A stretch of 64,000 nt of DNA from the IMG/VR virus record IMGVR_UViG_3300032323_003835, positions 32,001 to 96,000 of that record. One strand, 5' to 3'. This document shows, one piece after another, positions 9,369-34,796 of this stretch (within the stretch, counting starts at the first letter, position 1; the number at the start of each line of letters is the position of its first letter). Source of the stretch: a virus. Position numbers and translations under genes: made by a program. The notes below the pieces were generated by a model. It saw only the letters and a list, made by a program, of their open reading frames with translations, did no database searches and was not told the DNA's origin.

Positions 9369-9923
9369 TTAGACAAATTTATTTTCCCTAATCCAGATGA
9401 CTGCAATATATTTTATTCCTGATGTAACCGGAAGACCTGCATGTATAGATGTATAATCCAAGGAACCATCAGATTTTATATTGTCCCAAACAACTAATTT
9501 TCCCTTCTGTGGTATCACCTTTATCTCCAATTGTGGGAATTCAGTCTCTCCTCCGGTAAAGTCTTCATTGAGATAAACTAAAGCAGTTTTAGCTCTCTGA
9601 CCACCTCTATTAGTTACTTCTTTTTCATAATAGTTCTCTCCTGGATGGAAAAAGTCATGATGCACTTTATATTCCCCACCTATCTCATATTTAACTATGT
9701 GGGTTCCCTCCATATTTTCCTCAGGAAATAAAGTATATTCGGAAACCATTTTTCTTAGAAGCGAAACAGACTCATCTTGTGAAGAAAGCCAAGCACCCTG
9801 TGCTACTCGATACCCATCGATCTCTTTTCCTAAGGTGGATGTTTTAGTAAGCTGCGGCTGTGATAATTCTATTAGTGAATTGCAATGGTCCGCTGACAGA
9901 AACTCGTTTAACTCTGATACCAT
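9369..9923 (-). CDS. 2OG-Fe(II) oxygenase, prolyl 4-hydroxylase-like
   Basis: HHDFF (HxD), GGQR..TALVYLN..GGETEFP, HAGLPV..G.KYIA..WIR. Confidence 0.9.
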   Translation of the reverse strand: MVSELNEFLSADHCNSLIELSQPQLTKTSTLGKEIDGYRVAQGAWLSSQDESVSLLRKMVSEYTLFPEENMEGTHIVKYEIGGEYKVHHDFFHPGENYYEKEVTNRGGQRAKTALVYLNEDFTGGETEFPQLEIKVIPQKGKLVVWDNIKSDGSLDYTSIHAGLPVTSGIKYIAVIWIRENKFV

Positions 9924-9931
9924 ATAAAGAA

Positions 9932-10189
9932 TTATATTGCGGGATCTAGTTTTACGTCGTCTTGAGTATCTTCGCCCGGATCGTAAGTTATGCTATATTT
10001 TTCTATTGTATACTTTGCAATAACATCACAAAGCTTTTGGTCCTCTACCTGAGTTCCGTCAGGATTTGAAACTGTAACTGTTTTATCATCTGTAGTTAGA
10101 TCCTGATAGAAAGAAACCATGAAATTTCTTCCGTTAACAAGAAAGTCAAAGACTAGTGTGCAATGTAGTGGACTGGATTTAACGCTCAT
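9932..10189 (-). CDS. Hypothetical protein
   Basis: 85-aa ORF. Confidence 0.55.
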   Translation of the reverse strand: MSVKSSPLHCTLVFDFLVNGRNFMVSFYQDLTTDDKTVTVSNPDGTQVEDQKLCDVIAKYTIEKYSITYDPGEDTQDDVKLDPAI

Positions 10190-10255
10190 ACGTTTTTATT
10201 GATTATAGATATGAATCAGGGAATAATTCCGGGTAATAGCGGGTTTTATAGTAAA

Positions 10256-10900
10256 CTATTTCTTTTTAAAATCTACTTTCCAATAAACTCCTCCTCTTAC
10301 ATAAGGAATGAATTTTCCGTCTATACCATTAATTGTTTGATTCCAAACCCCCAATCCAACCTCATAAATTCTATCTCCGGGGGTTCTGTACAATAGAGAA
10401 GTTCCCAGGGAATAAACGTAATTAGGTTTATCTAAACCCCCATTCAGACCCAAATATAGATTACCCCTAGGTTCTTCTTTTATTTTTTGTATACTTTCTT
10501 TTACTGGTAATTTGATTTTTGAAAAATATTTACGAGAAAGTATATTTCCGCCAGACACCGTATCTATAATTGTAACATATCCGTGATCGACCTTAAGAGT
10601 GTCTATATTTACCTTTTTTGTATTATAAGCACTAAGTATTGCGGAGGTATCAACAGGAGAATATACCAAAACATCTCTATAAATAATGGTATCTCTTAAT
10701 ATTGGGAATGGTACTTCTAATTCTAGGTAAAGCGTGTCACGGATAATTATTGTATCCACAGGATTTTCATGGATTGAATCCTTAACAACGACCGGCATTT
10801 TTCTGCCGCTATTATTACAGCTGTAAAAAAATTGAGAAAATATTAAAATTAACACCACTATCGTAGTGCTTAATTTGAAATTGTCGTGTTTTAAATTCAT
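10256..10900 (-). CDS. Membrane-anchored protein with beta-rich C-terminus
   Basis: N-terminal hydrophobic segment, DTI repeats, alternating aromatic/Gly strands ending GGVYWK. Confidence 0.65.
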   Translation of the reverse strand: MNLKHDNFKLSTTIVVLILIFSQFFYSCNNSGRKMPVVVKDSIHENPVDTIIIRDTLYLELEVPFPILRDTIIYRDVLVYSPVDTSAILSAYNTKKVNIDTLKVDHGYVTIIDTVSGGNILSRKYFSKIKLPVKESIQKIKEEPRGNLYLGLNGGLDKPNYVYSLGTSLLYRTPGDRIYEVGLGVWNQTINGIDGKFIPYVRGGVYWKVDFKKK

Positions 10901-10952
10901 TTTATACTTTAGGTCGTGTAACTAAAGTATAGGTTTCAATCTATACTTAAAT

Positions 10953-11681
10953 CTATTCGGTGAATATTCCTTTCTTAATCATCTTATCTAAGATGTTAGC
11001 ACAAGCTATATCCAAAGCTTTCTTTGTCGATGTGCTGATTGTTGATTGATTAAACTTTATTGGATCAAGTGCTGCATCAGAAACCAGTGTTAATTCTCTA
11101 GTTGTTTTGGATTCACCTAAACCAGAAGCTGCTATAATTGCTCCAGTTTCTGCGTTAGTAAATCTAACTTGAAGTCCCAATCTAGTTACCAAATTATCTT
11201 TAATTCCGTCTTTCAAGCTGATCGACTCATCTTCGGATACTGAATAATCATAAACCTCGATTTCAACGAAATAATGGGCTAATTTAATTTTCCCTCTTCC
11301 GTCTATTTTATTTTCTGATATACCAGCCTGAGATGCTTGGAACTGCTTTACCATTCTGTTCTTAATCTCTGTCTTATCTTCAGTAAACTCAAATCTATTT
11401 AGATTGTCTAGGTATTCCAATACTATATTAGCAACACCAAGGCCTACTCTCTTTTCTTTCAATTCTGGATATGCCTCATAGGTCTCATCATTAATACCGC
11501 ACTTTAAAATTTGGATATTTTTCTTTGGACCATCGTAATCAAGATAGGCTGAAATATCTTTCTTCTTTTCAAAATCCGCTTTAAAATCCTCGGTTTTTGT
11601 TTTACCTATCGTTTGTGCATCTACGGATGTTGCCAATCCGATAGATAAAAACGTTACTGCAATAAGTTTAAGTAGATTCAT
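10953..11681 (-). CDS. CsgG/HfaB-like exported protein
   Basis: Signal peptide; GLGVANIVLEYL...RFEFTE, AHYFVEIEVYDY, LQVRFTNAETGAII resemble the CsgG core. Confidence 0.7.
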   Translation of the reverse strand: MNLLKLIAVTFLSIGLATSVDAQTIGKTKTEDFKADFEKKKDISAYLDYDGPKKNIQILKCGINDETYEAYPELKEKRVGLGVANIVLEYLDNLNRFEFTEDKTEIKNRMVKQFQASQAGISENKIDGRGKIKLAHYFVEIEVYDYSVSEDESISLKDGIKDNLVTRLGLQVRFTNAETGAIIAASGLGESKTTRELTLVSDAALDPIKFNQSTISTSTKKALDIACANILDKMIKKGIFTE

Positions 11682-11691
11682 CTTCTTTTAA

Positions 11692-11925
11692 TTATTTTTT
11701 AATCTCTGTTGGTTCGTACCAGATATTTTCGGGATTGTCTTTCCAGTTTCCGTCTATTTTTCTAGTAACTCTACTCGTGATATCTCTTGTTCTTTCTTCA
11801 TCTCCAGAAAACTGAAGATAAACAAAAAACAATTGCAATGATAATGCGGTGCATATCCAAAATCCTACAAGGACGAAATATACTCCTAATGCTTTTTCTG
11901 CTGCTTTTTCTAAAAACTTTTTCAT
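11692..11925 (-). CDS. Small single-pass membrane protein
   Basis: One long hydrophobic segment. Confidence 0.6.
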   Translation of the reverse strand: MKKFLEKAAEKALGVYFVLVGFWICTALSLQLFFVYLQFSGDEERTRDITSRVTRKIDGNWKDNPENIWYEPTEIKK

Positions 11926-11949
11926 GGGGGTTGTCGTGTTTTATATTTA

Positions 11950-11976
11950 AAAGAGCGGGATGCCCCGCTCTTTTTT
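11950..11976. terminator. Intrinsic terminator-like hairpin
   Basis: aaagagcggg-atgc-cccgctctttt with A/T flanks. Confidence 0.55.
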
Positions 11977-11981
11977 GTGAT

Positions 11982-12233
11982 TTATTCGGTTTCTTCTTCG
12001 GATTTTGTTTTTCCCTTTCCGAAGATTTTACCAGCTTCTGCGATACCAAATGATCCTAAAGTAATTATTACGAACGAATTAAAGATGGTATCACTAATCT
12101 CTAATGTTTTTCCTAAAATACCTGTTATAATATCAGCTCCTGCGAATACTGCCATAACAGCAAACGATGCGAATCCAACGATTGATTTTTCGTTATAATC
12201 GTTTTTGTCTTTAAAAATGTCTTTGAATGCCAT
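11982..12233 (-). CDS. Small two-TM holin-like membrane protein
   Basis: Two hydrophobic helices, charged C-terminal tail. Confidence 0.6.
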   Translation of the reverse strand: MAFKDIFKDKNDYNEKSIVGFASFAVMAVFAGADIITGILGKTLEISDTIFNSFVIITLGSFGIAEAGKIFGKGKTKSEEETE

Positions 12234-12263
12234 GATAAATTTATTTTATATTGTTGTAGCGGG

Positions 12264-12833
12264 TTATCCCTCTAAGTCATCTTTTAATAATCCACATTTT
12301 TGACACTCAAGTTCCCCGTCATTATCAGAATCGCCCCATACGTGTTCACATTGTCTGTGAGACTCATATTCAAGCTTTTCCATTTCCTGCTCGTGCTCTT
12401 GTGCATCTTTAGCTAGTTCAAATTTTTGCTGATTTTCTATAATCGATAATTCTCTAGCAGCTTGTGCTCCTGCAACGAATGCATCAGGAATAAGAGGAGT
12501 AACTGGCTTGTTAGTTTCTTTCATGTCATTGGTGTGTGATAGAGTAACTCCATCTTCTTCATCCATCTTCTGTACAAGCATTTTATCTTTGTCTGTATCA
12601 GAGAACCAATAATCAATAATTTTACCATAAGAGCCAATAAATGCCCCTAATAATAGAAGAAGTAATTCTTTCCATTCTCCTGCTATTTCGGTTCCAACTC
12701 CTATAGCGGCAAACATACCTGCTATAATTAGCATGAAACCTCCTAATACTAATGCAGTGATGTACCATCTGCGTGTCATCATTGAATTCAGTAGATCTTT
12801 AAATCCACTTGGTTGTTGATTTTTTCCTGTCAT
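12264..12833 (-). CDS. Two-TM membrane protein with C-terminal Cys/His knuckle
   Basis: Two TM helices, IIDYWFS motif, CEHVW...CQKC. Confidence 0.7.
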   Translation of the reverse strand: MTGKNQQPSGFKDLLNSMMTRRWYITALVLGGFMLIIAGMFAAIGVGTEIAGEWKELLLLLLGAFIGSYGKIIDYWFSDTDKDKMLVQKMDEEDGVTLSHTNDMKETNKPVTPLIPDAFVAGAQAARELSIIENQQKFELAKDAQEHEQEMEKLEYESHRQCEHVWGDSDNDGELECQKCGLLKDDLEG

Positions 12834-12864
12834 TTTATTTAATTTTTTTGTTGGTGGATATCCT

Positions 12865-13020
12865 TTATCTTTCCCAATTCCACCCTTTTTTTCTACCTCT
12901 TATTAATAAATAACTGCTACCTCCAATAAACGTTGATAAAAACATTAATGGAGAATTAAATACAAACATAGCTACCATACATAATATGATTACTGCTATA
13001 AAGCTTAATCCTTGTTCCAT
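12865..13020 (-). CDS. Small membrane protein (51 aa, not in ORF track)
   Basis: MEQGLSFIAVIILCMVAMFVFNSPLMFLSTFIGGSSYLLIRGRKKGWNWER; starts 2 nt after upstream stop. Confidence 0.55.
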   Translation of the reverse strand: MEQGLSFIAVIILCMVAMFVFNSPLMFLSTFIGGSSYLLIRGRKKGWNWER

Positions 13021-13022
13021 GA

Positions 13023-13346
13023 TTACCACTTAGGTGCTTCTTCCTTAAACTCGTCACCTTCTTTTTTCTTAACCTTCGGTGCAGGTTCAGCAGGCTTTGA
13101 AGCTGCTGCTCCTCCATTACCTCCGCCTTGTACAATTACAGTTTTACCTGCAGATTGTTGTTGCTGGTTAGAATTTGTGATGTTAATAACGGGTGCTGGT
13201 GCTGCTGCGGGTGCTGCTTCTTGATCTCCGCCGCCCATTAGAGTAGTTAGAAATACTCCTCCTGCTGTTACGACTGTACCTAGTACGCCTACGATTGTCT
13301 TTTTTAAACCTGACCAGGTTCCTTCGTTTTGTGTTTCCTCGCTCAT
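13023..13346 (-). CDS. Single-pass membrane protein with Pro/Ala/Gln-rich tail
   Basis: TM helix then APAAAPAP and QQQQ low-complexity segments. Confidence 0.7.
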   Translation of the reverse strand: MSEETQNEGTWSGLKKTIVGVLGTVVTAGGVFLTTLMGGGDQEAAPAAAPAPVINITNSNQQQQSAGKTVIVQGGGNGGAAASKPAEPAPKVKKKEGDEFKEEAPKW

Positions 13347-13378
13347 TTTGTTTTTTATATTCGTGTTTTAATGGCTTA

Positions 13379-13500
13379 GAAAAAATCCCGGATCAGGTAT
13401 CTACTTTTACTTAACGTTCATAGATGCGATGCATCTAGGAATATACTGAAAAGGTTGTATGAAAGATATTGCTTCTTTCAAACTGAATGAGGATTTTTTC
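13379..13500 (-). ncRNA. Putative structured 5' leader RNA, copy 1
   Basis: Closing stem GAAAAAAUCC/GGAUUUUUUC, internal hairpins, matches 21086-21223; follows GATATATA at 13506-13513. Confidence 0.55.
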
Positions 13501-13517
13501 AAGATTATATATCTTTT

Positions 13518-14972
13518 TTATAACATGATTCTGGATCCAATCATGAAATTATGTAAAATTTTTACCCCTGGCTGGGTCGATCCTGAAAATCTATAATTTA
13601 GATTAAGCCCGAATCTGCCAGTTAATTTATAGTCATACGAAAATCCACTCATAAATCCAAACTGTCTATTAACCAATGTTTGATTTGTGTTTGGATTCCA
13701 TGATATAGGAGAACTTGTTATAAAAATTTGTGGGGATATAGCTACTTTCTTATTTACTTGATAGACCTTTGTCCAGAATCCTATGGAAGATACTGAAGCA
13801 GAATAGCTATATCGATTGCCGTCTTTCAGCAATAAACTAACAAGTCCAACATTGTAACCATATGTTCCTATCTTAGGATCTGGTTTAATGAACGTATAAC
13901 CCTGCATAATCATGATATTTCCCTGCAGGTAAGCAATAGTCGTGGAATATGAATTTATGTTCTTTAACTTACCCTTTTCGAAGTTCATTTTGGTGTATCC
14001 CCCGTTTAATGCAAATTGGTCGAAAGTTGTCCATATCATAGATGTTAATCCCCAGCTTTCTGTTCCGGTCATAGAAGATTTGCTTATCCCAGTTGAGATC
14101 ATAGCAGAATACCTGCCATCATTTCCTTGAGTTACTGCTAAATCCGATGCGACTAGAGTAGGGTTGCTGACCGATTGTTTTTTCTTTTTCTCCTCTTCCT
14201 TCTTTTTCTTCTCTTCTTCTTTTTTCTTCTCTTCTTCTTTTTTATTTTCTTCTTTTTTCTTTTCCTCAGATTTACTCTCTTCTTTCTTTTCTTCTGATTT
14301 AGATTCAGATTTACTCTCTTCTTTCTTCTCTTCTGTCTTGGACTCAGATTTAGATTCCGATTTAGATTCCGATTTGGTTTCTGATTTTTGCTCGCTAGAG
14401 GATCCGCTACTTTTACTTTCCCCGCTAGAAGAAGATGAAGAAGATCCACCGCTAGAAGATGATCCACTAGAACTAGATCCCCCAGAAGAAGCTGAAGATC
14501 CCGCAGATGATCCTGCTGATGTCGAAGCAGAAGAAGATGCGGAAGAACTTGCAGCACTACTTGCTGATGATGATGCAGCAGATGATGCTGAACTACTTGC
14601 AGCAGATGATGCAGCACTACTAGCTGCAGCAGAGGCGGCGGAAGAAGCAGCAGCAGAAGCAGCAGCAGAAGCTGCTTGTGCAACAGTCTGCTGAACCGTC
14701 TGGGTAACGACAGTACTTACAGGACAAGGTCTTGTACCATAGTCTTTATAAACAGCATCCAGCCAAGCCTGAACAGTACCATTATTTACTTCTGCGTTGC
14801 TAAATGTTCTTATTTGATTGTAGAAAGCTATTACTACCATTCCGTTTGGCATGGGGGTAGATACAACAACTTTAAGTTCCCCCGAACATTTATCCACGTA
14901 AGTTTGTGTGAATGTTTGTGCATCCACTTTAAATGCTATAGCCAACAAAAAAAGAATTAGTAATTTCTTCAT
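13518..14972 (-). CDS. Exported protein: Ser/Ala-rich and Glu/Lys-rich linker plus C-terminal beta-barrel-like domain
   Basis: Signal peptide, AASS/SSG and EEKKK repeats, amphipathic beta strands in the last ~220 aa. Confidence 0.75.
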   Translation of the reverse strand: MKKLLILFLLAIAFKVDAQTFTQTYVDKCSGELKVVVSTPMPNGMVVIAFYNQIRTFSNAEVNNGTVQAWLDAVYKDYGTRPCPVSTVVTQTVQQTVAQAASAAASAAASSAASAAASSAASSAASSSASSAASSSASSAASSSASSSASTSAGSSAGSSASSGGSSSSGSSSSGGSSSSSSSGESKSSGSSSEQKSETKSESKSESKSESKTEEKKEESKSESKSEEKKEESKSEEKKKEENKKEEEKKKEEEKKKKEEEKKKKQSVSNPTLVASDLAVTQGNDGRYSAMISTGISKSSMTGTESWGLTSMIWTTFDQFALNGGYTKMNFEKGKLKNINSYSTTIAYLQGNIMIMQGYTFIKPDPKIGTYGYNVGLVSLLLKDGNRYSYSASVSSIGFWTKVYQVNKKVAISPQIFITSSPISWNPNTNQTLVNRQFGFMSGFSYDYKLTGRFGLNLNYRFSGSTQPGVKILHNFMIGSRIML

Positions 14973-15002
14973 CTACAATTTTCTAAAAGGTCTTATTTTT
15001 AA

Positions 15003-15377
15003 TTACAGCTTATTAAAATCTGTAATTCCTAATAGATTATTGTTAGAATCATAAAGTCCAATTCTGTAAGCAGATGATGGAAGTGCTGATGTGTAAACCT
15101 TTAAAAGATTATCACCTGCCTTTACATTAACTTGCTCCTTTGATACTACCTTATTAGAAATGTCCATAATTTTAATGGTTACACTTCCTGCATTTTCTAA
15201 TTTAACATTCATTGCAACCTCATTAGTTACAAATGCGGACTGCAATTTAATTCCAACATTACTTGATATGCTAAGCTCTGGTTTGATCTGCTCATGCACA
15301 CTTGGATAGATGTCATCTTTAGTACATCCTGCTACAAAGAATGCCATTCCGAAAGATACGATTAATACTTTTTTCAT
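15003..15377 (-). CDS. Lipoprotein with T9SS C-terminal-domain-like Ig fold
   Basis: Lipobox VAGC; VTIKIMDISNKVV...GDN...SALPSSAYRI resembles the Por secretion CTD. Confidence 0.6.
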   Translation of the reverse strand: MKKVLIVSFGMAFFVAGCTKDDIYPSVHEQIKPELSISSNVGIKLQSAFVTNEVAMNVKLENAGSVTIKIMDISNKVVSKEQVNVKAGDNLLKVYTSALPSSAYRIGLYDSNNNLLGITDFNKL

Positions 15378-15385
15378 TTTTTTTA

Positions 15386-15730
15386 TTATTTTATTATTAC
15401 GGTCGTTTTTGCTATTTCTTTCTTGAGGGAATCCTCTAATAATAGATATAGGTATTTCGATTGTATTGAGTTTGTGTATATTTTTTTTACAACTTCACCT
15501 GCACTACTTGTGAATCTTTCTCTACTGATTACCTGATTTGTTTCTTTGTCAATTAGTGTAAGTGTATACACACCATCGAAAGGTACATTAAAATAGATAG
15601 ATTGGCCATTAGTTACGGAGCTTTCCTTAACACTGAATATGTCGTCTTTAGCTAATACATCAGGCAGTGGTAGTTCTGGTTTAGTACATCCAGCTAATAA
15701 AATCAACGATATCAAGATTATTTTTTTCAT
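15386..15730 (-). CDS. Lipoprotein, paralog of 15003-15377
   Basis: Lipobox LAGC; YTLTLID...VISRE...KIYT pattern shared with neighbour. Confidence 0.6.
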   Translation of the reverse strand: MKKIILISLILLAGCTKPELPLPDVLAKDDIFSVKESSVTNGQSIYFNVPFDGVYTLTLIDKETNQVISRERFTSSAGEVVKKIYTNSIQSKYLYLLLEDSLKKEIAKTTVIIK

Positions 15731-16623
15731 TAGAATTTAAAATTAGTTCCTATCATAAACATTATTGGGTTACTCTTTTTATATCCAACAGATTCACTTA
15801 GTTTATCCCAGGTTGTGTTATATCTGATATTGGTGTTTAGTATAAACCTTTTAGTTATTTTCCAATCGATAGATGTACCATAGTATAAGTCTAGATTAAA
15901 ATCATCCAGATACCCTAAATCAGATTCGGTTCCATCTTTAAAAACTTTATACACATCACTCATTGCAAATATTTGAGGCGATATGTTTACCCTCTTCGTT
16001 TCGAATGTATATGTGTACATCGCCATACCTCTATATGTCATTTCGCTCGATGGAGGTATTTGTGGATAAATTAAATCCAAAAAATTGCCATCAACATCTA
16101 CTGTATATTTTCCTTCCCATTCACCTGGATAACTTCCCCAGAATGATTTAGATGCAATTAAGCTATAACCGAACGTTCCCCACTTCTTAGTTCGAAATAC
16201 ATCTATGAATGATAGTGTAATATCTTTTTGGAAGTTAAAATCCGTAGAGTAGAATGATTGTAAAGTCGTAGTCCTTTTCTGTGTGTTTTTACTAACACCA
16301 TAACCTACACCGTAATAATTCCATATTGGATTTATTGATGCTGCAAAAGTGTGTCCCCATTTTCCGTTTATAGATGATTTATGGTATCCTAGATTAAGAG
16401 TAGTTGATACTTGTTTTCCTATAATACCTACTGAAAGGTTCGAAGACGAAAGGACATCCTTTGAAAAATTAACATAAGATTGTAATATACCCACATCGTT
16501 CCAATCATCGCTTTCACCAAATAATTCTTTTGGAGACAGCTGTAATGTATCAGGTTTTTGTATTTGTGCATTTGATACAAATACAATTAAAAATAAAAAT
16601 ATGGTTAATACTATTTTTTTCAT
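15730..16623 (-). CDS. Putative outer-membrane beta-barrel protein
   Basis: Signal peptide, aromatic-rich alternating strands, terminal Phe (GTNFKF, BAM-signal-like). Confidence 0.7.
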   Translation of the reverse strand: MKKIVLTIFLFLIVFVSNAQIQKPDTLQLSPKELFGESDDWNDVGILQSYVNFSKDVLSSSNLSVGIIGKQVSTTLNLGYHKSSINGKWGHTFAASINPIWNYYGVGYGVSKNTQKRTTTLQSFYSTDFNFQKDITLSFIDVFRTKKWGTFGYSLIASKSFWGSYPGEWEGKYTVDVDGNFLDLIYPQIPPSSEMTYRGMAMYTYTFETKRVNISPQIFAMSDVYKVFKDGTESDLGYLDDFNLDLYYGTSIDWKITKRFILNTNIRYNTTWDKLSESVGYKKSNPIMFMIGTNFKF

Positions 16624-18920
16624 TAGTTTATTTTTACCTTTAATTGTGTTCCGTTCTTATTAACAGCATCTGTTGTTGATACTGATGTTAAACCTAATAT
16701 GTTATTAATTCCTATTAATGGAACGAATGTTATTTTATATTCGGTTTTGCTGTCTAATGTTGTTGATCCGTCTGTTATTAACGAGCCAAGCGTTACTGAA
16801 GATCCTCTATTAGCACCAAAATTGGTTGGATTACCCTTTGTTGTAAAATCAACTTTTTCAAAACTTAAAGCAGTATTATCATAGTTTAATTGAAATTGTG
16901 TTCCTACAACTTCCTGCTGAAGAGGATCTAAAGATATTGTTATTATAACTTTTCCTCCAACTATTTCCCCCATTAAATAAGCCTTTATCTCATTAGAAGT
17001 TGATGTACTCATAGTTTTTAAACTCATACTTCTAACAGAATTACCGGCAACAGTACTTACACTTTGTTGTGCAGAATGGGATAAATTTACATCACCAACC
17101 CATGTTATGTTTACATTATAAGTATTGTTAAGTGTTCCTGTATTCAAACTGAACGGAAATAGACTTCTGGTTGAATTAAATTGTGTGTTCCAATTAGATT
17201 TCGTTATTGCATCATAATCAGATTTACTATACAATTTCATCAAATAAGTTAATGCTGAAAACTGCGTAAGAGACTGTGCCCCAGTTAAGTGCTGTAATAG
17301 TCTATACGTATCAGCTTCGTTGAATATACCATTTCCGTCTACGTCTGCGTTCATAAACTGAATACCTGACGTAAATTCATTTCCGCTTTCATTACCAAAT
17401 AATCCGCCTAATGATAATTCTTTAAATGCCAAATAAACATCAGATACTGTTACAATACTATTGTATAAAGAGTTTAATTCTGTTTGATTAGAATAAGACA
17501 ATTCAATCCCGTGTTGTTTAAATATTGTATTTGGGGAAAATGAATAATCTGCTTTAAATGCATACCATCCGTCCTGTAATCTTATATTGCTTTGGAACGA
17601 ACTTGCAGCAACTTTACTAGCCAAATTAATATTTCCGGGTACTACCCATTGTTTCCACCATCCATTAAAATCCATTGGTGTAATTGGACCTTCGTAGATA
17701 TCAAATAACTTTACATATTTTACATTGTTTAAGTTAATACCAGTTCCACTAAATACTCTTTCATCAATTTGTAATCTATGCCCGTTTCTTGATTGTTCGT
17801 ACGGATTTATAAGCGACCATTCTACTTGACCCGGAACTATCGTTGCTCTGACTCCGTCGGATATCTTTGCTGTATCTAAATCGTTTGTAATATCAACTTT
17901 ACCCAATCCACTTATTGATCTTGATACATTAGTTGTTGTACCCCATACATTGTTTACATAAGTATTTGCTTTTGCTGAGAATTTAGTTTCATCTACATTA
18001 CTACCAAAATCAAAATTGAATCTTGCGGTAAGGACTTCTCCGTTTGAGTGAGTTACTGAATTGGTATAGAACTCTGTAAATGTTGCATCGTCAGGATTAG
18101 TCCAAGTTCCATATTCGATTACATACGGATTACTAAAGTTATTAGGTAAATCGTTCCATTGAGAACCATTCCATTTTGTTACTGCGTAATCTTCATTACC
18201 AGAATTGTTTGGTTCGCCCGGTGCCCAGTTATTATATTGTCCGGGTATGTTTCCGTTTGTTTGTCCATTATTTATTTTAATTAAAGTTCCTTTTTCAGGA
18301 CCAGCATCAATCACCCATCTGGCTTCACTTGCTTCATCAGTTAGTGCAAACCATATATTTGATTGAGGTACATTATTAAAAATAAAAGCATCTTCATCTG
18401 GTGAAGTGATTGTTACCAAATATCCTTTTTGACCTTTAAATGTTGTTAATTCAGCGGCAGCCCTTGCGTTTGTATAAGTTGCTCCGGTTGATATTGGTCT
18501 ATAAAAGTGTCCGTTTGTTCCATTATAAAAGAAACCCGTTGGATTTACAGTTGCCGCTACTGATAATGCAATATTACCTCTTACCGAACCTGTGTTTACT
18601 TTAAGAGATGTTAATGCCGTATTAATACTTGCCATTGTGCCGGTTACCACTAAACGGGTCTTATTACCTGCTAATGTAAAACCACTTGCTGCGGTTAGAC
18701 CTGTTGTTATGGTTAGGTTAAATGTTGTACCTGTTGGTGGATTAACTAAACTGATTGATGCTAATAGAGTTGATGTAGAAGTAAAACCACTTAATACGAA
18801 TCCACTAGCATCTTGTCCGGCAGTAGATGGTAAAAAAGATTTAGAGTCCGGAGCAGATACACTCTGTCCGAACCCTAAAAATGAAATTAGTAAAAAAAAT
18901 ATTACTAATAATTTCTTCAT
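16623..18920 (-). CDS. Exported C-type lectin / dockerin-like / cohesin-like protein
   Basis: Signal peptide; GHFY..YLVTITS..E, YNNWAPGEPNN, WNDL (CTL); ADVDGNGIFNEAD (dockerin-like); GTQFQLNYDNTAL (cohesin-like). Confidence 0.8.
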   Translation of the reverse strand: MKKLLVIFFLLISFLGFGQSVSAPDSKSFLPSTAGQDASGFVLSGFTSTSTLLASISLVNPPTGTTFNLTITTGLTAASGFTLAGNKTRLVVTGTMASINTALTSLKVNTGSVRGNIALSVAATVNPTGFFYNGTNGHFYRPISTGATYTNARAAAELTTFKGQKGYLVTITSPDEDAFIFNNVPQSNIWFALTDEASEARWVIDAGPEKGTLIKINNGQTNGNIPGQYNNWAPGEPNNSGNEDYAVTKWNGSQWNDLPNNFSNPYVIEYGTWTNPDDATFTEFYTNSVTHSNGEVLTARFNFDFGSNVDETKFSAKANTYVNNVWGTTTNVSRSISGLGKVDITNDLDTAKISDGVRATIVPGQVEWSLINPYEQSRNGHRLQIDERVFSGTGINLNNVKYVKLFDIYEGPITPMDFNGWWKQWVVPGNINLASKVAASSFQSNIRLQDGWYAFKADYSFSPNTIFKQHGIELSYSNQTELNSLYNSIVTVSDVYLAFKELSLGGLFGNESGNEFTSGIQFMNADVDGNGIFNEADTYRLLQHLTGAQSLTQFSALTYLMKLYSKSDYDAITKSNWNTQFNSTRSLFPFSLNTGTLNNTYNVNITWVGDVNLSHSAQQSVSTVAGNSVRSMSLKTMSTSTSNEIKAYLMGEIVGGKVIITISLDPLQQEVVGTQFQLNYDNTALSFEKVDFTTKGNPTNFGANRGSSVTLGSLITDGSTTLDSKTEYKITFVPLIGINNILGLTSVSTTDAVNKNGTQLKVKIN

Positions 18921-18921
18921 A

Positions 18922-20562
18922 TTATTCTATAATTAAATTTATTTTGTTACCAGCTCCATCAACAGCATCTGATAAAACGAAATAAAATAAACCTGCGGTA
19001 TTTGTTAATTGAACCTTAGGTGTGAAAATTAATCTATATGGTTTTCCTGTTTTAATTCTAGCGGTTTTTATCTGATCGATTGAACCGAAAGTTAATCTAC
19101 CATCTTTATGTGTAGAGAAATTTGTCATGGTTGATCCTGAATCAAAGATTACATTATCTAATGTCAATTTAGATTCGTCATAATTCATAATAACCTCTAA
19201 TCCTGCTAATCCTTCTTTTGTTAGGTTTGTAGTTAATACAACTTTACCACCTTCTAATGTTGATGTTACACTCAATTTAGCAGTCTCTAATGCCTCAGTT
19301 CTATAAGCCATTGATTGAGTTGACATAGTTGTCTTGGCGTTAATAGAATTTACAGAATTTGTAAATTGACCAGCATTAATTCTACTTAAAATTTCTGAAG
19401 GATCTGATGAATGTGACCAGTTCAAATCACCACCCCACGCAAATACCGCATAAACTTCCTTAACCGGGGTATCAATTTTAACTTTATTTTTAACATTACC
19501 GTCTAACCAATCTTGATTTAATAAACCACTTTGCCATCTCCATGAAGTTGCAGTTGATGTTGGGATGAATGCGTTTGCTGAAACGTCTTGTCCCATAACA
19601 TAAGCGAATGAATAATATGAATCCGATTCATTAAATACTGCATCATTCCTAGTTATATTACCGACTTTCTTCTCCAAATTAGGATACGTAAAGAAATTAG
19701 AATTACCACTAATATCAGTTTGTGAGTGGCCTAAAAATGATTTATAAGCATCTGATACAGTAATGACGTTATTCATCCAAGCTTTTTGAGAAGCAGGACT
19801 TACGAATACTCCAACAGAATCACCAACTTTAACCTGTGTTGTAAATAGTGCTTCTCCGGTAGCATCCAATGGTAATTGTGCAACTGGTGGTACCGCCCAA
19901 TCAATTGTTCCGTCGGTTTTTAATTTCATCAGCTGAACATTATGATCTGCGATTGTATAACCTTGCGGGAATAAAACTTTAACCTTGAATTGAGAAGTAT
20001 TACCAACCACATTTGTTAATGATAGATTAGTAGAATTTCTAGTGATCGGAGAAATGTTTGCAGACAAATCGCTGATAGCATACGCTAAATCCAATTTGTG
20101 TATATCATTATAGGTATTTTGATCTTTTAACACATATTTTTGTGTTGCAATATCTCCGTTAATTGATGCATCAGCTCTTTGAACTGTTAATTGTCCAACG
20201 TTCCAATCGTTGTTTAAGATGTAAGCCCAAGGAGTAGCTTGATATTGACCATATAAATTAGTAGCTGTCACATTTGGGGCAGGTGTAAATGAGTAATTGT
20301 TCCATCCAGTAAAGAACGTTTGGGTTGAACTACCCTGTGTAAACGCAGTGCTGTTTGGCACCATTGCCAGTGCTTTGTTATTAAAGGAATATCTTAACCA
20401 AAAATAACGCGGAAGAGAAGTACCCCTGTCTACTGTGTACTTTACTGTTAATGTATCACCAACTTTATAGGGAGGAGCAGGTGTTACCGATTGAAACACG
20501 TTAATTTGAGCAAATGACGATAGGGACATTAACATTCCCAGGACTGTTAGTAGTTTTTTCAT
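18922..20562 (-). CDS. Exported cohesin/dockerin-like protein, C-terminal half paralogous to 16623-18920
   Basis: Signal peptide; ITVSDAY, FNESDSY, WGGDLNWSHS, GLEVIMNYDESKL mirror the neighbour. Confidence 0.7.
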   Translation of the reverse strand: MKKLLTVLGMLMSLSSFAQINVFQSVTPAPPYKVGDTLTVKYTVDRGTSLPRYFWLRYSFNNKALAMVPNSTAFTQGSSTQTFFTGWNNYSFTPAPNVTATNLYGQYQATPWAYILNNDWNVGQLTVQRADASINGDIATQKYVLKDQNTYNDIHKLDLAYAISDLSANISPITRNSTNLSLTNVVGNTSQFKVKVLFPQGYTIADHNVQLMKLKTDGTIDWAVPPVAQLPLDATGEALFTTQVKVGDSVGVFVSPASQKAWMNNVITVSDAYKSFLGHSQTDISGNSNFFTYPNLEKKVGNITRNDAVFNESDSYYSFAYVMGQDVSANAFIPTSTATSWRWQSGLLNQDWLDGNVKNKVKIDTPVKEVYAVFAWGGDLNWSHSSDPSEILSRINAGQFTNSVNSINAKTTMSTQSMAYRTEALETAKLSVTSTLEGGKVVLTTNLTKEGLAGLEVIMNYDESKLTLDNVIFDSGSTMTNFSTHKDGRLTFGSIDQIKTARIKTGKPYRLIFTPKVQLTNTAGLFYFVLSDAVDGAGNKINLIIE

Positions 20563-20563
20563 T

Positions 20564-21067
20564 TTAATTTAATAATTGTTTTATTGCTGTTCCGCATACC
20601 TTTTTAATAACAGTTGAAACGGATTGTTGATTCATCTTTCCTCCCTCGTCAACTATTAATGTTGACACTGAAATTTCGGATGCTTTTTCGGTTATTAAAC
20701 ATTCTTTTATTTTTTTCCCCTTGCTATCTAGGAGGTATGCTTTTATTTTTAATACGGTTTCAGCGTTGTTCTTATGGAATACAGCAACGCTAGATTTTGT
20801 TGTTTCAACATCAAAGAATAAAAGATCTATATTGATTTTATAATCAAATTTGGTCTCATCTTCTACTATGTCAAAATTTGTTTCTTGGAGATATTCTTCT
20901 AGGAGATTTTTGAATCCAAAAGTTAACGGCCTGGATCCTGCTAAATTACCGATCATGATCTTATTGTTTATTTCTCCAATAAGAACAGACTTTCCCTGCC
21001 CGAATGATGAAAGGGCAAAAAGGGAAACTACTAAAGTTAGTGTGAGAGATTTAAAGAGGTTTGGCAT
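20564..21067 (-). CDS. Exported protein, first gene of envelope cluster (CsgG/TolB-N-like alpha/beta fold possible)
   Basis: Signal peptide; GFKNLLEEYLQE..FDIVE parallels the CsgG-like gene. Confidence 0.55.
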   Translation of the reverse strand: MPNLFKSLTLTLVVSLFALSSFGQGKSVLIGEINNKIMIGNLAGSRPLTFGFKNLLEEYLQETNFDIVEDETKFDYKINIDLLFFDVETTKSSVAVFHKNNAETVLKIKAYLLDSKGKKIKECLITEKASEISVSTLIVDEGGKMNQQSVSTVIKKVCGTAIKQLLN

Positions 21068-21085
21068 TTTTTCCTATTTTATTAG

Positions 21086-21223
21086 GAAAAAACCCGGCAT
21101 TCCCCCTAAGGAGGGCTTCAAATAAAGATCATTTCTGATTGGGGATCGTGTTTCCCAAAGAGAGACCTTTATGATTTGCTGGTAAAAAAATTGTTTGCTT
21201 TTTTACCGAATGAGGATTTTTTC
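21086..21223 (-). ncRNA. Putative structured 5' leader RNA, copy 2
   Basis: Closing stem GAAAAAAUCC/GGGUUUUUUC, UCCUCAUUC, AGCAA-loop hairpin; follows GATATATA at 21229-21236. Confidence 0.55.
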
Positions 21224-21274
21224 GAGTTTATATATCTAATACAACTCTGAAAATCCACATAGTAAAAATAATAT

Positions 21275-22790: not shown

Positions 22791-23477
22791 TTATATTTTC
22801 CAAAAATATAATAGGGTCTGATGACCAGCCCCGTGTATCCATCCATTAAAACCTGCCTGATTTATTCTGTTAACAAATGCTTCCATTAGCTTTGTGTTTG
22901 AATTCTCGGTAATCCCGGATACGTTGTGCCACTCAATAAATATTCTATCAATCTTTCTTAGCGTATCGTCTGTTATTGTATTAAAACAGGATCTTTCTGC
23001 TCCCTCTATGTCAACCTTAAGAAAATCTATTCGGTCTAGTTTGCAAATAGAAAACACATCATCCAGTGTTATAGCTTCGACAAGTGCTTTTTCTTGTAAA
23101 GATGGCCAAAGCCCTATTTCAAACATACCTCTGTGGTCCGTGATTGCTTTATTATAGGTTTTCCAATTAACACCCTTATTCATCAATAAAGACTCGTAAA
23201 CAACCGGATCTGCCTCGAATGAATATATTTCTTTAACCCCAATCCTTTCCGCATATCTAGAGGACATACCTATATTAGACCCAAGATCGACAAAAATATC
23301 CCCGGGTTTGACCGAGCATTCCGGTTGAAAGCTTAGTTCAGTGTGATGAAAGGTAGACCAATACATACATGCCTCCCATCCATATTCTCTTTCGACATCA
23401 GATTGTGAAACATTGAAATTAACATTATCGAAATCCATTAATTTTCCACCTATGGTGTGGAATTTTTCTCTCATCAT
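22791..23477 (-). CDS. FkbM-family methyltransferase
   Basis: VDLGSNIG, YSFEAD, IDFLKVDIEGAE, IEWH. Confidence 0.88.
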   Translation of the reverse strand: MMREKFHTIGGKLMDFDNVNFNVSQSDVEREYGWEACMYWSTFHHTELSFQPECSVKPGDIFVDLGSNIGMSSRYAERIGVKEIYSFEADPVVYESLLMNKGVNWKTYNKAITDHRGMFEIGLWPSLQEKALVEAITLDDVFSICKLDRIDFLKVDIEGAERSCFNTITDDTLRKIDRIFIEWHNVSGITENSNTKLMEAFVNRINQAGFNGWIHGAGHQTLLYFWKI

Positions 23478-26361: not shown

Positions 26362-26820
26362 CTAATTTTTATTATTTTCGGAAGGAATCCAATAGTTAAA
26401 ATAAAAATCTCGGATAAAGTCTAGGGTTATATTTCCGCTCAGGAATCTATCCCTAAGCCCAAAATCCCTAAAGTTGATAACATTCCCGTTTATTAGGAAT
26501 TTATAAAGAGGTTTAATTTGCTCTAGATCGTCTCTTTCGTTTAACGAGATTATTTCAGTGGATGTAAATTGTAAAAGGTCCCGGTTGTTTAGGAGTAATC
26601 TAAATTTAGTAGTAGTTGTTGTTCCCTCTTTGAAGACTCTGGCTGACAAGTATACTGGTTTAATATGCCTTTTATCAAGATCAAATATATCTATAGCGGT
26701 ATCCCCTAGATCCTTTATGTCCCGGCGATCTTTTATCTCGCCAATCCATTTAACATATTCATCGTTTGAACAATCATATATCATTGTTTCACATTGGCTT
26801 AACACTGTCTCCTTTATCAT
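26362..26820 (-). CDS. Hypothetical protein
   Basis: 152-aa ORF overlapping the upstream stop. Confidence 0.6.
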   Translation of the reverse strand: MIKETVLSQCETMIYDCSNDEYVKWIGEIKDRRDIKDLGDTAIDIFDLDKRHIKPVYLSARVFKEGTTTTTKFRLLLNNRDLLQFTSTEIISLNERDDLEQIKPLYKFLINGNVINFRDFGLRDRFLSGNITLDFIRDFYFNYWIPSENNKN

Positions 26821-28496
26821 TTTTTTGAAATTAAATAATTACCTAAAACTAAGAAATCCATTTCGGAATCTAAAAATCTTATTATAGCATCTTTCGGATA
26901 TAGCGTTATAGTTTGGTCCTTGAAATTGAAAGATGTGTTAAGTAATATTGGGTATCCTGATAATTCTCCAAAAGTTTTTAATAAACGATAGAATCTTGGA
27001 TTTTCGTACGATGTTACAGTCTGAACTCTTGCTGTTCCATCCACGTGTGTTATTGCAGGTAAATCCCACTCTTCTTTAACCTTTACTACCATATTCATAT
27101 ACGGAATGGACGATTCTGTTTCAAAAAATTTAGATGCTTCATCGAGGGTGACTGAGGGAGCGAAGGGCCTAAACATCTCCCTTTTCTTTATCACCGAATT
27201 TATTCTATCCTGCATGTGAGGATAGAGTGGTGAAGCTAGAATAGATCTATTTCCAAGTGCTCTGGCTCCAAACTCCATTTTACCCTGAAACCATCCTATA
27301 ACATTTCCTTCGTTAAGAAGATTGGAACACTTGAAAATAAGATCTGTTGGATCCATATGATCGTAATTAATTCTATCTCCGAAATTTTTAAAGGATGCTT
27401 CTATTTCTTCTCTATCAAATGAAGGTCCCTGATACGCATCAAACGGTCCCTTTCTCTTCCATTCTTTTACTACGTTTATATAATGGAGACATGCTCCTAT
27501 AGCGGATCCCCCGTCGGACGGAGATAAAGGAACCCAGACGTTTTCATAATTTGATGAGGAGGATATTTTAGAATTTGCTACACCATTATAAGCGCATCCT
27601 CCGCCCAGACACAAATTACTAGTGTTATTAAGCTCGTAGCTAAACTTTATCACCTCAATCAATATTTCTTCATATATCTTCTGAACAGAGGCAGCTATGT
27701 GCTTGTGATGAGCTTCTATGGCATCATTAGAGAATCTTGGGTGGATATTAAGAAGAATAGATAGGTTCTCGTTAAACATTATTCTGTCCGAATAATTCCA
27801 CGAGAAATATTTCATATTTACCCTGATTTTACCATTATCATAGGCTATGGTTTTTTTGATGGCATCATAATAGACGGAGGGATCACCATAAGAGGCCAAT
27901 CCCATTACCTTGTATTCTCCTTCGTTGGGCCTAAATCCAAGAAAGGCGGTAAATGCAGAATAAAAAAGCCCGAGGGAGTGCGGGTAATTTATCGAATGTA
28001 ATTTAGTTATCCTATTTTTGGTTGCTTTAGAAATAGTAACTGTTTCCTTTTCACCAACGCCATCGACGGTTACTATATTACATTCCGAAAAATTAGACGT
28101 GAAGTATGCTAAAGACGCGTGGGATAGGTGATGATCTACGAAATAGATTTTTTTAGAAAATCCCAGTTCGTCCAATAAAACGTCTTCCACTGATTTCTTT
28201 TTTCCGCTAAAGATGTAATCTACAATTCTTCTAAAATTTTTGATTGGATTCTTTCTGAAGGTTTCGATTACCCTCTCTCTTTTCTTTATGGGGTTTTCGT
28301 ACCAACAAACTACACTTATATCTTTTGCGGATATTCTATTGGATTTTAGTAGCCATTTAATAGTTTCCTTAGGGAATGAGCTATCACCCTTAACCCCGGT
28401 GAATCTTTCCTCCTCTGCTGCTCCCAGCAAGGTATTATTCCTATATAAACATGCTGCAGAATCGTGGTAAAATGCAGAGATTCCAAGTATATACAT
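26817..28496 (-). CDS. Carbamoyltransferase (NodU/CmcH/TobZ family)
   Basis: ILGISAFYHDSAA, EEERF, HHLSHA, DGVGE, GEYKVMGLA, GARALGNRSIL, FRPFAP, LLNTSFN. Confidence 0.95.
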   Translation of the reverse strand: MYILGISAFYHDSAACLYRNNTLLGAAEEERFTGVKGDSSFPKETIKWLLKSNRISAKDISVVCWYENPIKKRERVIETFRKNPIKNFRRIVDYIFSGKKKSVEDVLLDELGFSKKIYFVDHHLSHASLAYFTSNFSECNIVTVDGVGEKETVTISKATKNRITKLHSINYPHSLGLFYSAFTAFLGFRPNEGEYKVMGLASYGDPSVYYDAIKKTIAYDNGKIRVNMKYFSWNYSDRIMFNENLSILLNIHPRFSNDAIEAHHKHIAASVQKIYEEILIEVIKFSYELNNTSNLCLGGGCAYNGVANSKISSSSNYENVWVPLSPSDGGSAIGACLHYINVVKEWKRKGPFDAYQGPSFDREEIEASFKNFGDRINYDHMDPTDLIFKCSNLLNEGNVIGWFQGKMEFGARALGNRSILASPLYPHMQDRINSVIKKREMFRPFAPSVTLDEASKFFETESSIPYMNMVVKVKEEWDLPAITHVDGTARVQTVTSYENPRFYRLLKTFGELSGYPILLNTSFNFKDQTITLYPKDAIIRFLDSEMDFLVLGNYLISKK

Positions 28497-34182: not shown

Positions 34183-34796
34183 TATCTGTCTCTCTTTTGT
34201 AATATCGGTTTATCGGTTGGCCACTCCATTTGATATTCAGGGTCATTCCATTTAACCACACCTTGCTCATCCGCATCAACATATCTGTCTTTATAAAATA
34301 GATTATAATGGAACATACAATCTGTTAAGGCATAATGTCCATTAGCAAATCCGGGCGGAACGAGAACTTGGTTCCTGTCTTTCTCTGTGATCATAAAAGA
34401 TTCCCAATCTCCATAAGTTGGTGATTGCTTTCTCATATCTAGCACAATCAAATAAATGTCACCGACTGCCGCTTGAACCAATTTCCATGTTTTACTGTCG
34501 TAATGTAATCCTCTCAATACCCCTTTGTATGATTTTGAAAATCTTCCGTGTATACTGATTTCGTTCTTATCGTAATGTATGTGTCTCATTACCGGATGCT
34601 CTTCACTATGAAATGTGGTAAATATCTCTCCTCTATATTCTCTATAGATCGAAGGGGTAAATGTTGGAACTTCGTATCCAAACTTTTTTGAAGGTGTTTC
34701 TTTAAATTCGTCCCACTTGCTACTCATTGTCTTACATATTATTTGCGTATCCCAGTGGGAATCCATTTCTGAATTCCGCACCCATTTTTGGTACAA
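34182..34796 (-). CDS. rmlC: dTDP-4-dehydrorhamnose 3,5-epimerase family (start probably 34727)
   Basis: SKSYKGVLRGLHY, KLVQ, LDMR..SPTYG.W, VPPGFANGH, WNDP..W. Confidence 0.85.
   Translation of the reverse strand: MYQKWVRNSEMDSHWDTQIICKTMSSKWDEFKETPSKKFGYEVPTFTPSIYREYRGEIFTTFHSEEHPVMRHIHYDKNEISIHGRFSKSYKGVLRGLHYDSKTWKLVQAAVGDIYLIVLDMRKQSPTYGDWESFMITEKDRNQVLVPPGFANGHYALTDCMFHYNLFYKDRYVDADEQGVVKWNDPEYQMEWPTDKPILQKRDR

Follow-up and report, generated by a model that had tools for sequence, protein, structure and literature searches.

We examined a 64,000-nucleotide (nt) window, bases 32001-96000 of the 111-kb IMG/VR viral record IMGVR_UViG_3300032323_003835, in which positions 10256-21067 are filled by 14 open reading frames (ORFs) on the minus strand. 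We numbered them in the direction of transcription from g1 (20564-21067) to g14 (10256-10900), and their products are listed in Table 1. The window has a G+C content of about 34% and nearly all of its genes lie on the minus strand. CheckV puts the completeness of the record at 33%, which implies a genome of about 330 kb, and relatives that carry the block have genomes of up to 317-334 kb. The phage is a very large lake-water phage of Flavobacterium-type (Bacteroidota) bacteria, and in Bacteroidota phages the block forms a conserved group of co-regulated genes whose products are exported.

Export signals were sought with a simple hydropathy and lipobox script applied to the ORFs that start with ATG. 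An N-terminal signal peptide, lipobox or transmembrane (TM) helix was found in all 13 such ORFs of the block, whereas outside the block the window gave 11 of 89 (Fisher p = 2.7e-10). A preliminary description of this DNA had stated that the co-directional genes all carry such a signal, and for the 13 ATG-started ORFs this holds; g9 is a doubtful gene. Signals of the signal-peptidase-I type, with a predicted cleavage that exposes Gln, are present in g1, g2, g3, g4, g7 and g13. Gln after signal-peptidase-I cleavage is the Q-rule of Bacteroidetes (PMC5837995), and it is also seen in the block orthologues of a cultured Flavobacterium phage. Lipoboxes are present as well, in three proteins (g5, g6 and g14) and not in the two originally counted, and each of g8 to g12 has either one TM helix or two.

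The genes fall into two transcription units, headed upstream of g1 and of g8. Both heads carry the AGATATATAA motif and the exact 16-mer GAAAAAATCCTCATTC, which within the window occurs only at these two places, and the leaders of the two units are alike for the first ~55 nt and then diverge. The AGATATATAA motif is promoter-like, and the late type assigned to it in the preliminary description is putative. The common leader noted at the outset is thus real, and in the closest relatives the same motif pair, AGATATATAA plus the 16-mer, also precedes the g1 and g8 orthologues. Rfam contained no known RNA matching the block or its leaders. Within the second unit, the GC-rich hairpin between g11 and g12 may, from its sequence, end, attenuate or split the unit. 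A ATATAAAACACGAC-type promoter/leader motif lies 3' of this hairpin, as it does ahead of other small genes of the window.

Table 1. Features of the exported-protein block and of its two unit heads (positions in the window; aa, amino acids; AF2, AlphaFold2).
Feature	Positions	Strand	Description	Basis
Unit 1 head	21068-21237	minus	AGATATATAA motif, exact 16-mer GAAAAAATCCTCATTC and leader upstream of g1	motif search, leader alignment
g1	20564-21067	minus	167 aa; secreted (cleavage before Gln); short g13 paralogue, predicted	hhalign
g2	18922-20562	minus	546 aa; secreted; cohesin-type C-terminal region, homologous to the C-terminus of g3	sequence match
g3	16623-18920	minus	765 aa; secreted; C-type lectin and cohesin-type C-terminus	Pfam, PDB, motif scan
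g3 lectin domain	18090-18515	minus		
g3 EF-hand/dockerin-like loop	17286-17363	minus		
g3 cohesin-type C-terminus	16626-16994	minus		
g4	15730-16623	minus	297 aa; predicted outer-membrane beta-barrel, 12 strands, C-terminal Phe	AF2 model, Foldseek, VIA
g5	15386-15730	minus	114 aa; lipoprotein; small beta-sandwich; g6 paralogue	lipobox, alignment with g6
g6	15003-15377	minus	124 aa; lipoprotein; beta-sandwich like the DUF3244/T9SS sorting-domain fold	sub-threshold Pfam
g7	13518-14972	minus	484 aa; signal peptide, two-Cys N-domain, stalk, predicted C-terminal barrel	hhalign to g4
g7 N-domain	14703-14918	minus	70 aa, two Cys	
g7 stalk	14181-14702	minus	~175 aa, rich in Ser/Ala, then Glu/Lys	
g7 C-terminal barrel	13521-14180	minus	last 220 residues	
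Unit 2 head	13347-13514	minus	AGATATATAA motif, same 16-mer and leader upstream of g8	motif search, leader alignment
g8	13023-13346	minus	107 aa; bitopic inner-membrane protein	TM helix, residues 18-36
g9	12865-13029	minus	54 aa; GTG start; hydrophobic; doubtful gene	in 1/80 loci
g10	12264-12833	minus	189 aa; inner-membrane protein; C-terminal Cys/His motif	TM helix, residues 28-46
g11	11982-12233	minus	83 aa; small membrane protein; charged C-terminus (holin-like in form only)	hydropathy; 26/80 loci
g11/g12 hairpin	11949-11974		GC-rich perfect hairpin; possible terminator/attenuator	11-bp stem
g12	11692-11925	minus	77 aa; small membrane protein	hydropathy; 67/80 loci
g13	10953-11681	minus	242 aa; secreted, non-lipidated; CsgG family, predicted	family profile and AF2 fold
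g13 Tyr71-Pro72 loop	11460-11471	minus		
g13 long hairpin	11154-11273	minus		
g14	10256-10900	minus	214 aa; lipoprotein; beta-rich C-terminus	Cys28 after hydrophobic segment

The block is widespread. More than 500 viral contigs in IMG/VR carry g13 at 78-92% identity, and the g13 family matches 6195 protein clusters (90% identity clusters). Locus counts and identities given here refer to the best 80 loci, chosen by g13 similarity among these contigs; genes can be compared fairly with one another within a locus, and the absolute values are biased by the g13-based choice. In these loci the block lies on one strand between flanking genes that are mostly different. Its sub-modules (g1; g2-g3-g4-g5-g6; g8-g10-g11-g12; g13; g7; g14) are shuffled in order and are always together. 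Two outcomes had been named beforehand as speaking against the preliminary description, namely that no other genome would have the same genes in synteny or that the folds would not be those of CsgG, barrels or lectins. Neither occurred: the block was found in 80 viral contigs, the 317-334 kb genomes among them, and all three folds were recovered, as set out below.

Among public phage records, megablast with the block found nothing, and tblastn with g13 and g3 hit the immuto phages alone. Flavobacterium phage vB_FspM_immuto, which has a 160-kb genome and infects Flavobacterium sp. LMO8, carries a compact version of seven genes, gp013-gp019, located among replication genes. These encode, in order, a C-type lectin protein (gp013), a secreted protein (gp014), a cohesin protein (gp015), the orthologues of g8 (gp016) and g13 (gp017, 54% identity), a g7-like protein (gp018) and a g1-like protein (gp019). 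That the block encodes virion proteins was considered and rejected, given the export or membrane signal on every product and the position of the immuto module among replication genes. Homologue searches with g13 and g4 returned, among the matches listed, only close, unnamed relatives; in BFVD one protein of an uncultured phage bears the name CsgG. When species-representative genomes were scanned, the module turned up on contigs binned with metagenome-assembled genomes (MAGs) of Flavobacterium, Sediminibacterium and other Bacteroidota, and these are probably phage contigs.

A core of g8, g13, g7 and g1 persists down to 27% identity. In two loci at 27-28% identity (L094 and L095), the g13 homologue is a lipoprotein and is followed by a protein with a g7-type N-domain and by a g1-like protein; the g7 N-domain follows the g13 homologue even at 27-29% identity. 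An Ignavibacteriales MAG (L089) encodes a Pfam-valid CsgG protein (28.6 bits, cut-off 20.8) that is 36% identical to g13, together with a g1-like protein; their neighbours, truA, Fic and a CHASE2 cyclase, show plainly that the site is chromosomal. The operon there (10004-16043 of a 232-kb contig) consists of the CsgG-family lipoprotein, the g1-like protein, an 825-aa protein without a Pfam match and then a CHASE2-adenylate/guanylate cyclase, and is possibly a bacterial ancestor or cousin of the phage core. In bacterial MAGs, domains of the g13 type also occur as fusions with a caspase-family protein and with a Ser/Thr kinase (P0201, 535 aa; P0257, 647 aa). The g13 family was not found in the 80 other Flavobacterium genomes sampled; the phage therefore brings something that these hosts lack, and the g13/g1 pair is old and bacterial, though apparently foreign to the host genus.

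These comparisons bear on the idea that the block is an island of independent exported accessory genes (morons) that share only the timing of their expression. Genes g4, g5/g6, g11 and g14 come and go among the relatives, the sub-modules change order, most of the proteins match no known family, and the surroundings are of a general accessory kind (carbamoyltransferase, epimerase, methyltransferase, 2-oxoglutarate (2OG) oxygenase). Yet the sub-modules have remained neighbours in spite of many rearrangements and exchanged flanks, the linkage of g13, the g7 N-domain and g1 is kept to 27% identity, the g13/g1 pair recurs in a bacterial chromosome, and lectin and cohesin genes stand beside the core in the 160-kb immuto genome too. 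We consider a collection of unrelated morons very unlikely. The earlier proposal of a single envelope-directed phage module draws support from the same pattern, in which the block is conserved while its flanks change, shuffled sub-modules remain together and the core reaches down to 27% identity.

The family scans covered all 14 products for Pfam and ten of them for PHROGs and NCBIfam (g1-g7, g10, g13 and g14; g8, g9, g11 and g12 were scanned with Pfam only), and the only match above threshold in the block was the lectin domain of g3. Direct scans with g13, the most conserved gene of the block (median 84% identity), gave no match in Pfam, NCBIfam, PHROG or, with the single sequence, the PDB; the CsgG profile PF03783 matched neither g13 nor anything else in the whole 111-kb record. 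An exhaustive HMMER search recovered 200 cluster representatives as g13 homologues. When 37 full-length homologues, down to 22% identity, were scanned, 14 matched Pfam CsgG (best 1.9e-17) and 7 matched LpoB. A g13 family profile found the E. coli CsgG structures in the PDB at E = 1.8e-4, over CsgG residues 1-192. The AF2 model of g13 (predicted local distance difference test, pLDDT, 78) had CsgG as its top Foldseek match (E = 1.9e-7). Its alignment to CsgG by VIA-align gave Z 12.7 and a root mean square deviation of 3.1 over 153 residues, with Z 12.0 over 174 residues for the membrane form, and other members of the fold followed (Cj1090c, Z 11.3; PelC, 9.8; LptE, 9.6). Because transitive sequence homology and the fold match agree, g13 is assigned, from sequence and model, to the CsgG family as a divergent member.

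Single-sequence PDB searches with g1 returned nothing useful. Comparison of the g1 family with the g13 family by hhalign gave 91.5% (E = 8.6e-7), and the g1 orthologues include immuto gp019 (95.5%) and the protein in the bacterial operon (96.5%). By these profile comparisons g1 is taken to be a shorter paralogue in the same CsgG-fold family; it is present in 51 of the 80 loci with a median identity of 45%. The CsgG-like assignment first made for both proteins was thus upheld by an indirect route, through the Pfam matches of homologues, the family profile, the fold and hhalign.

The role first proposed for g13, that of an export pore, fared worse. Under this reading g13 would be a genuine outer-membrane channel of the CsgG type (type VIII-like), through which g2, g3 or some other block product leaves in unfolded form. 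CsgG is indeed the closest family of g13 by both sequence and fold, the model has a long beta-hairpin at residues 137-176, and g2 and g3 have no other recognised route across the outer membrane. The CsgG constriction loop residues are Tyr51, Asn55 and Phe56 in E. coli numbering. Tyr71-Pro72 of g13 is nearly invariant in the family and aligns with CsgG Tyr51-Pro52, but the positions of Asn55 and Phe56 hold Lys or a gap. In g13 and its close relatives the signal peptide has Ala or Gly as its last residue and Gln comes next; Cys is missing there and hence the lipobox, whereas more distant homologues retain one (Gly-Cys or Ala-Cys). Towards its tip (residues 149-166) the hairpin is polar, with a conserved Glu152 in the register that would face the lipid, and falls ~6 residues short of its counterpart in E. 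coli CsgG; the second hairpin region lacks an amphipathic pattern. Pfam curli families gave no match to a CsgE, CsgF, CsgA or CsgB partner among the 14 products, and the negative PF03783 scan of g13 also counts against a channel. Moreover, relatives that export their cohesin protein by the type IX secretion system (T9SS) retain g13; because they do, g13 is no substitute for T9SS export. CsgG/CsgF clusters are on record in pelagimyophages (PMC7029224), which leaves a precedent for the channel, but on the whole we regard it as quite improbable.

The second conserved fold is a beta-barrel. An AF2 model of g4, built on the g4 and g7 families, has 12 antiparallel strands at a pLDDT of 61. Its best matches by Foldseek and VIA were KdgM (Z 21.7), NanC, the NalP, BrkA and AIDA translocators and FapF (Z ~20), with Z 19-22 to 12-strand barrels versus Z 12-15 to barrels of 14-16 strands. 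No Pfam Autotransporter, FapF or porin family was matched, tblastn of g4 against public phage records found nothing, and in the ESM Atlas g4 hit generic barrel families only, below the trust level. The gene, whose start overlaps the stop of g3, is present in 17 of the 80 loci at 67-89% identity (median 85%). The C-terminal barrel of g7 aligned with g4 by hhalign at 95% (E = 2.9e-8), and g7 occurs in 69 of the 80 loci with a median identity of 51%. From model and sequence together, g4 and the C-terminus of g7 are predicted to be homologous 12-stranded outer-membrane barrels. Both had been put forward as barrel candidates, and hhalign, the g4 model and the structural matches agree with that call. 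The immuto protein gp018 matched the g4/g7 barrel by hhalign at just 13%, and in the most distant loci homology of the g7-like C-terminus to this barrel was not detectable. A third barrel of this type, in g14, was considered and rejected (hhalign 3.8%).

The largest product, g3, matched Pfam Lectin_C (PF00059) at residues 163-267 with 27.9 bits against a cut-off of 22.6 (E = 4e-6) and C-type lectins in the PDB at up to 2e-5. The Ca/sugar motifs EPN (at 236) and WND (at 255) are both present, and g3 contains no Cys, hence lacks the usual lectin disulfide Cys. To judge from the sequence, this is a genuine EPN/WND C-type lectin domain that is predicted to bind glycans, in line with the lectin originally recognised here. 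The accompanying claim of a cohesin/dockerin-like protein is supported in its first half through orthologues. Although g3 itself scored 19.5 bits to Cohesin (PF00963; cut-off 24.1) and g2 gave no Cohesin match, the equivalent C-terminal domains of three related loci (L064, L085 and L087) and of immuto gp015 scored 31-37 bits, above the cut-off. The dockerin half is weak, as g3 has a single canonical D-x-D-x-N-G loop at residue 526, EF-hand-like and sub-threshold (Dockerin, PF00404, 14.1 bits, cut-off 22.9). Protein g2 had no Pfam or PDB match of its own; it matched g3 residues 484-761 at E = 6.5e-15, and this common region lines up with the stretch that Pfam recognises as Cohesin in the L064 orthologue. 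The g2 and g3 genes are the most variable of the block (22-91% identity) and g13 and g4 the most conserved, as would be expected if a conserved machine carried ligand binders that differ from host to host.

Arrival of g2 and g3 at the surface of the infected cell, which the preliminary description implied, is putative. Neither has a T9SS sorting domain (Por_Secre_tail), and the best score in the record was that of g6 (18 bits, cut-off 27). In immuto, by contrast, the cohesin protein gp015 ends in a Pfam-valid T9SS sorting domain (PF18962; 34.6-37.8 bits), and that of a second lineage (L087) does so at 44.5 bits. These two cohesin proteins are therefore T9SS cargo, bound for the surface in those phages.

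The remaining products are small. Lipoprotein g6 scored 23.1 bits to DUF3244 (cut-off 25) and 17.8 bits to Por_Secre_tail (cut-off 27), so that the likeness of g5 and g6 to the T9SS sorting domain is a weak lead at sub-threshold sequence level; as true homologues of that domain they are unsupported (hhalign 24% and 0.6%). A match of g5 to an Rz-like spanin PHROG covers its signal peptide only. The bitopic g8 has a periplasmic tail rich in Pro, Ala, Gly and Gln with a conserved acidic C-terminal end (median identity 53%), and its gene lies next to that of g13 in immuto, where its orthologue is gp016 (72% over the N-terminus), and in three other loci (L084, L085 and L088). Because g9 was detected in only one of the 80 loci it is doubtful and may not be a gene. 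Protein g10 is found in 70 of the 80 loci (median identity 58%), and its look-alikes in the ESM Atlas are only unnamed viral hypothetical clusters. In immuto, gp233 of the gp233-gp236 region (L083, 22750-23850 of NC_055915) is a small membrane protein whose C-terminal zinc-ribbon motif recalls the Cys/His tail of g10; the same region encodes an endolysin with an N-terminal hydrophobic segment like that of signal-anchor-release (SAR) endolysins. Lipoprotein g14 occurs in 48 of the 80 loci (median identity 36%), and a search of the PDB with its family profile found no relative.

Several of these small proteins would suit a different function, in which all or part of the block is a lysis/egress system for the Bacteroidota envelope. 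In such a system g9-g12 would be holin and antiholin, g8, g13, g14 and the barrels would jointly make up a spanin-like link or an outer-membrane disruptor, and the endolysin would be encoded separately. A PG_binding_1 plus Glyco_hydro_19 endolysin indeed lies 136-1500 bp from the module in 20 loci, with endolysins 59-100% identical across lineages; it lies inside the module in L085 and directly 3' of g13 in L086. Proteins g9, g11 and g12 are small and have one or two TM helices and charged C-termini, g8 is a type II inner-membrane protein whose gene adjoins that of an outer-membrane-associated partner, and no canonical spanin was recognised in the window. On the other side, the lectin, cohesin and T9SS-cargo proteins fit no known lysis system, and thirteen genes far exceed any known lysis cassette. 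Beyond the signal peptide of g5, no PHROG or Pfam holin or spanin matched (Pfam only for g8, g9, g11 and g12). The tail of g8 is Pro/Ala-rich and not coiled-coil, and g13, at 78-92% identity, is far more conserved than lysis proteins usually are. The nearest muralytic candidates in the window are also remote. An endolysin-like protein by PHROG (29692-30612), with weak similarity to glycoside hydrolase family 19 (GH19; 30% over 120 aa to the module-adjoining endolysin of relatives), lies 8.6 kb from the block, and a CHAP-domain protein (36086-36916) lies 15 kb from it. The extended lysis/release machine that had been offered as an alternative function is thus backed by an endolysin next to the module in at least 20 relatives and not by any holin or spanin family. 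Lysis is the main rival and a serious one, for the whole block or for its g9-g12 part, even if we hold it to be on balance unlikely.

The reading that we favour, with a probability of roughly 0.45, is that the block is a phage module that installs proteins in the envelope of the infected Bacteroidota cell and remodels its surface. The core proteins g8, g13, g7 and g1 would assemble into a complex on the inner side of the outer membrane, which we infer from gene linkage alone. Within it, g13 and g1 may be ring or plug subunits that partner a barrel, as the CsgG-fold proteins PelC and LptE do, and the bitopic g8 may link g13 to the inner membrane. That the apparatus spans the envelope, as first proposed, is likewise putative. 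The fast-evolving lectin and cohesin proteins would be the output of the module, binding surface glycans and perhaps each other; in the related lineages the cohesin protein would reach the surface through the host T9SS. A surface changed in this way could mask receptors, exclude superinfecting phages or make the infected cell stick to its neighbours ('sibling capture').

Several observations weigh against surface remodelling. A GH19 endolysin lies near or in the module in at least 20 relatives, and the holin shape of g9, g11 and g12 points to lysis. Protein g13 lacks the lipid anchor that CsgG needs for the outer membrane and has polar hairpin tips, so it may be periplasmic. With no T9SS sorting domain on g2 and g3, their surface exposure is putative, and the confidence of the g4 barrel model is only moderate (pLDDT 61). 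A bolder version of surface remodelling would make the core a trans-envelope machine, with a non-lipidated CsgG-fold ring that sits below a tethered barrel of 12 strands and has a connection to the inner membrane, and would have it export or anchor self-docking lectin/cohesin proteins without the host T9SS, so that the infected cell captures neighbours or shields its receptors. We think this version improbable as a whole.

Genes for tailoring sugars or metabolites surround the block. They encode an FkbM-type methyltransferase, a Nol-like carbamoyltransferase, a nucleotide-sugar epimerase and a 2OG-Fe(II) oxygenase (collectively at 22791-23477, 26817-28496, 34732-35703 and 9369-9923), and the phage may in addition modify glycans on the host surface, which the lectin could then read. 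Elsewhere in the window, two more proteins (46806-47309 and 36975-37598) have Bacteroidota-type signal peptides; the first has a Gly-rich N-terminal motif that is presumably like the phage tail-collar domain.

The module is common in the public metagenome collections searched, and a phage that spends 11 kb on nothing but the host envelope makes a large outlay. This implies an undescribed step in the infection of Bacteroidota, either a change in the surface of the infected cell or a breaching of its outer membrane. It also supplies a naturally occurring CsgG-fold protein that lacks a lipid anchor and is paired with a short paralogue; as the pairing of CsgG-like and g1-like proteins is also chromosomal, the case bears on many uncharacterised CsgG-like proteins of bacteria. 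The sorting domain on the cohesin proteins of two related lineages makes it appear that phages use the host T9SS. The cultured pair of immuto and Flavobacterium sp. LMO8 makes the question directly testable.

Phage proteins sent to the inner or outer membrane of the host are known from lysis cassettes (holin, endolysin, spanin), from T5 Llp, a phage lipoprotein that sets the precedent for receptor masking, and from lambda Lom and Bor. These systems comprise one to five genes of other families and none combines a CsgG fold, barrels and lectin/cohesin proteins, although the module shares with lysis cassettes the endolysin that adjoins it in many relatives. Likeness to T9SS cargo (PF18962) is seen in the valid sorting domains of immuto gp015 and the L087 cohesin protein and, below threshold, in the fold of g5 and g6; no protein of the window reaches the cut-off. 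Like type Va autotransporters (PF03797), g7 has an N-domain, a long linker and a predicted C-terminal 12-strand barrel in the same order, but it has no Pfam match and its 'passenger' is just ~70 aa. The g4 model is at Z 19-22 to autotransporter barrels (NalP, EspP, AIDA-I), to the KdgM/NanC porins and to FapF.

The nearest published phage counterpart is the partial curli cluster of pelagimyophages of the HTVC008M group, which consists of CsgG, CsgF, a pair of hypothetical proteins and one protein associated with curli (PMC7029224). No function is known for it; aggregation or 'sibling capture' was suggested by the authors (PMC7029224). As in the block, a phage CsgG-family gene lies in a small conserved operon within a variable region (PMC7029224). 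Pelagimyophages, however, infect SAR11 (Alphaproteobacteria) and have a CsgG and a CsgF closely similar to those of proteobacterial curli (PMC7029224); their cluster lacks lectin, cohesin, barrels and the lipoproteins resembling a T9SS C-terminal domain (CTD), and the block has no detected CsgF. Our searches of the literature on phage CsgG-like proteins, CsgG in huge phages and lectins or cohesins of Flavobacterium phages found no description of the module. The apparatus can accordingly be called undescribed as a whole, as the preliminary description had it, with the reservation that a phage CsgG/CsgF cluster has been published (PMC7029224).

Among bacterial systems, PelC (with PelB), LptE (with LptD), LpoB and PqiC match the g13 model at Z 8.8-9.8, and 7 of the 37 homologues match Pfam LpoB. 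The tight linkage of g13 and g1 to the barrel gene g7 would echo the barrel-plus-ring logic of the PelC and LptE type, as far as gene linkage can suggest it, but all four proteins are lipoproteins of host housekeeping systems, and g13 has no sequence-level membership in their families. With CsgG itself (PF03783; PDB 4UV2, 4UV3 and 6L7A), g13 shares the fold (VIA Z 12.0-12.7 over 153-174 residues), profile homology and the Tyr-Pro of the constriction loop. It differs in having no lipobox, shorter polar hairpins, no constriction Asn-Phe, no CsgA/B/E/F partners and no direct Pfam match. In their place, the gene linkage suggests as partners of g13 its short paralogue g1, the tethered 12-strand barrel of g7 and the bitopic g8.

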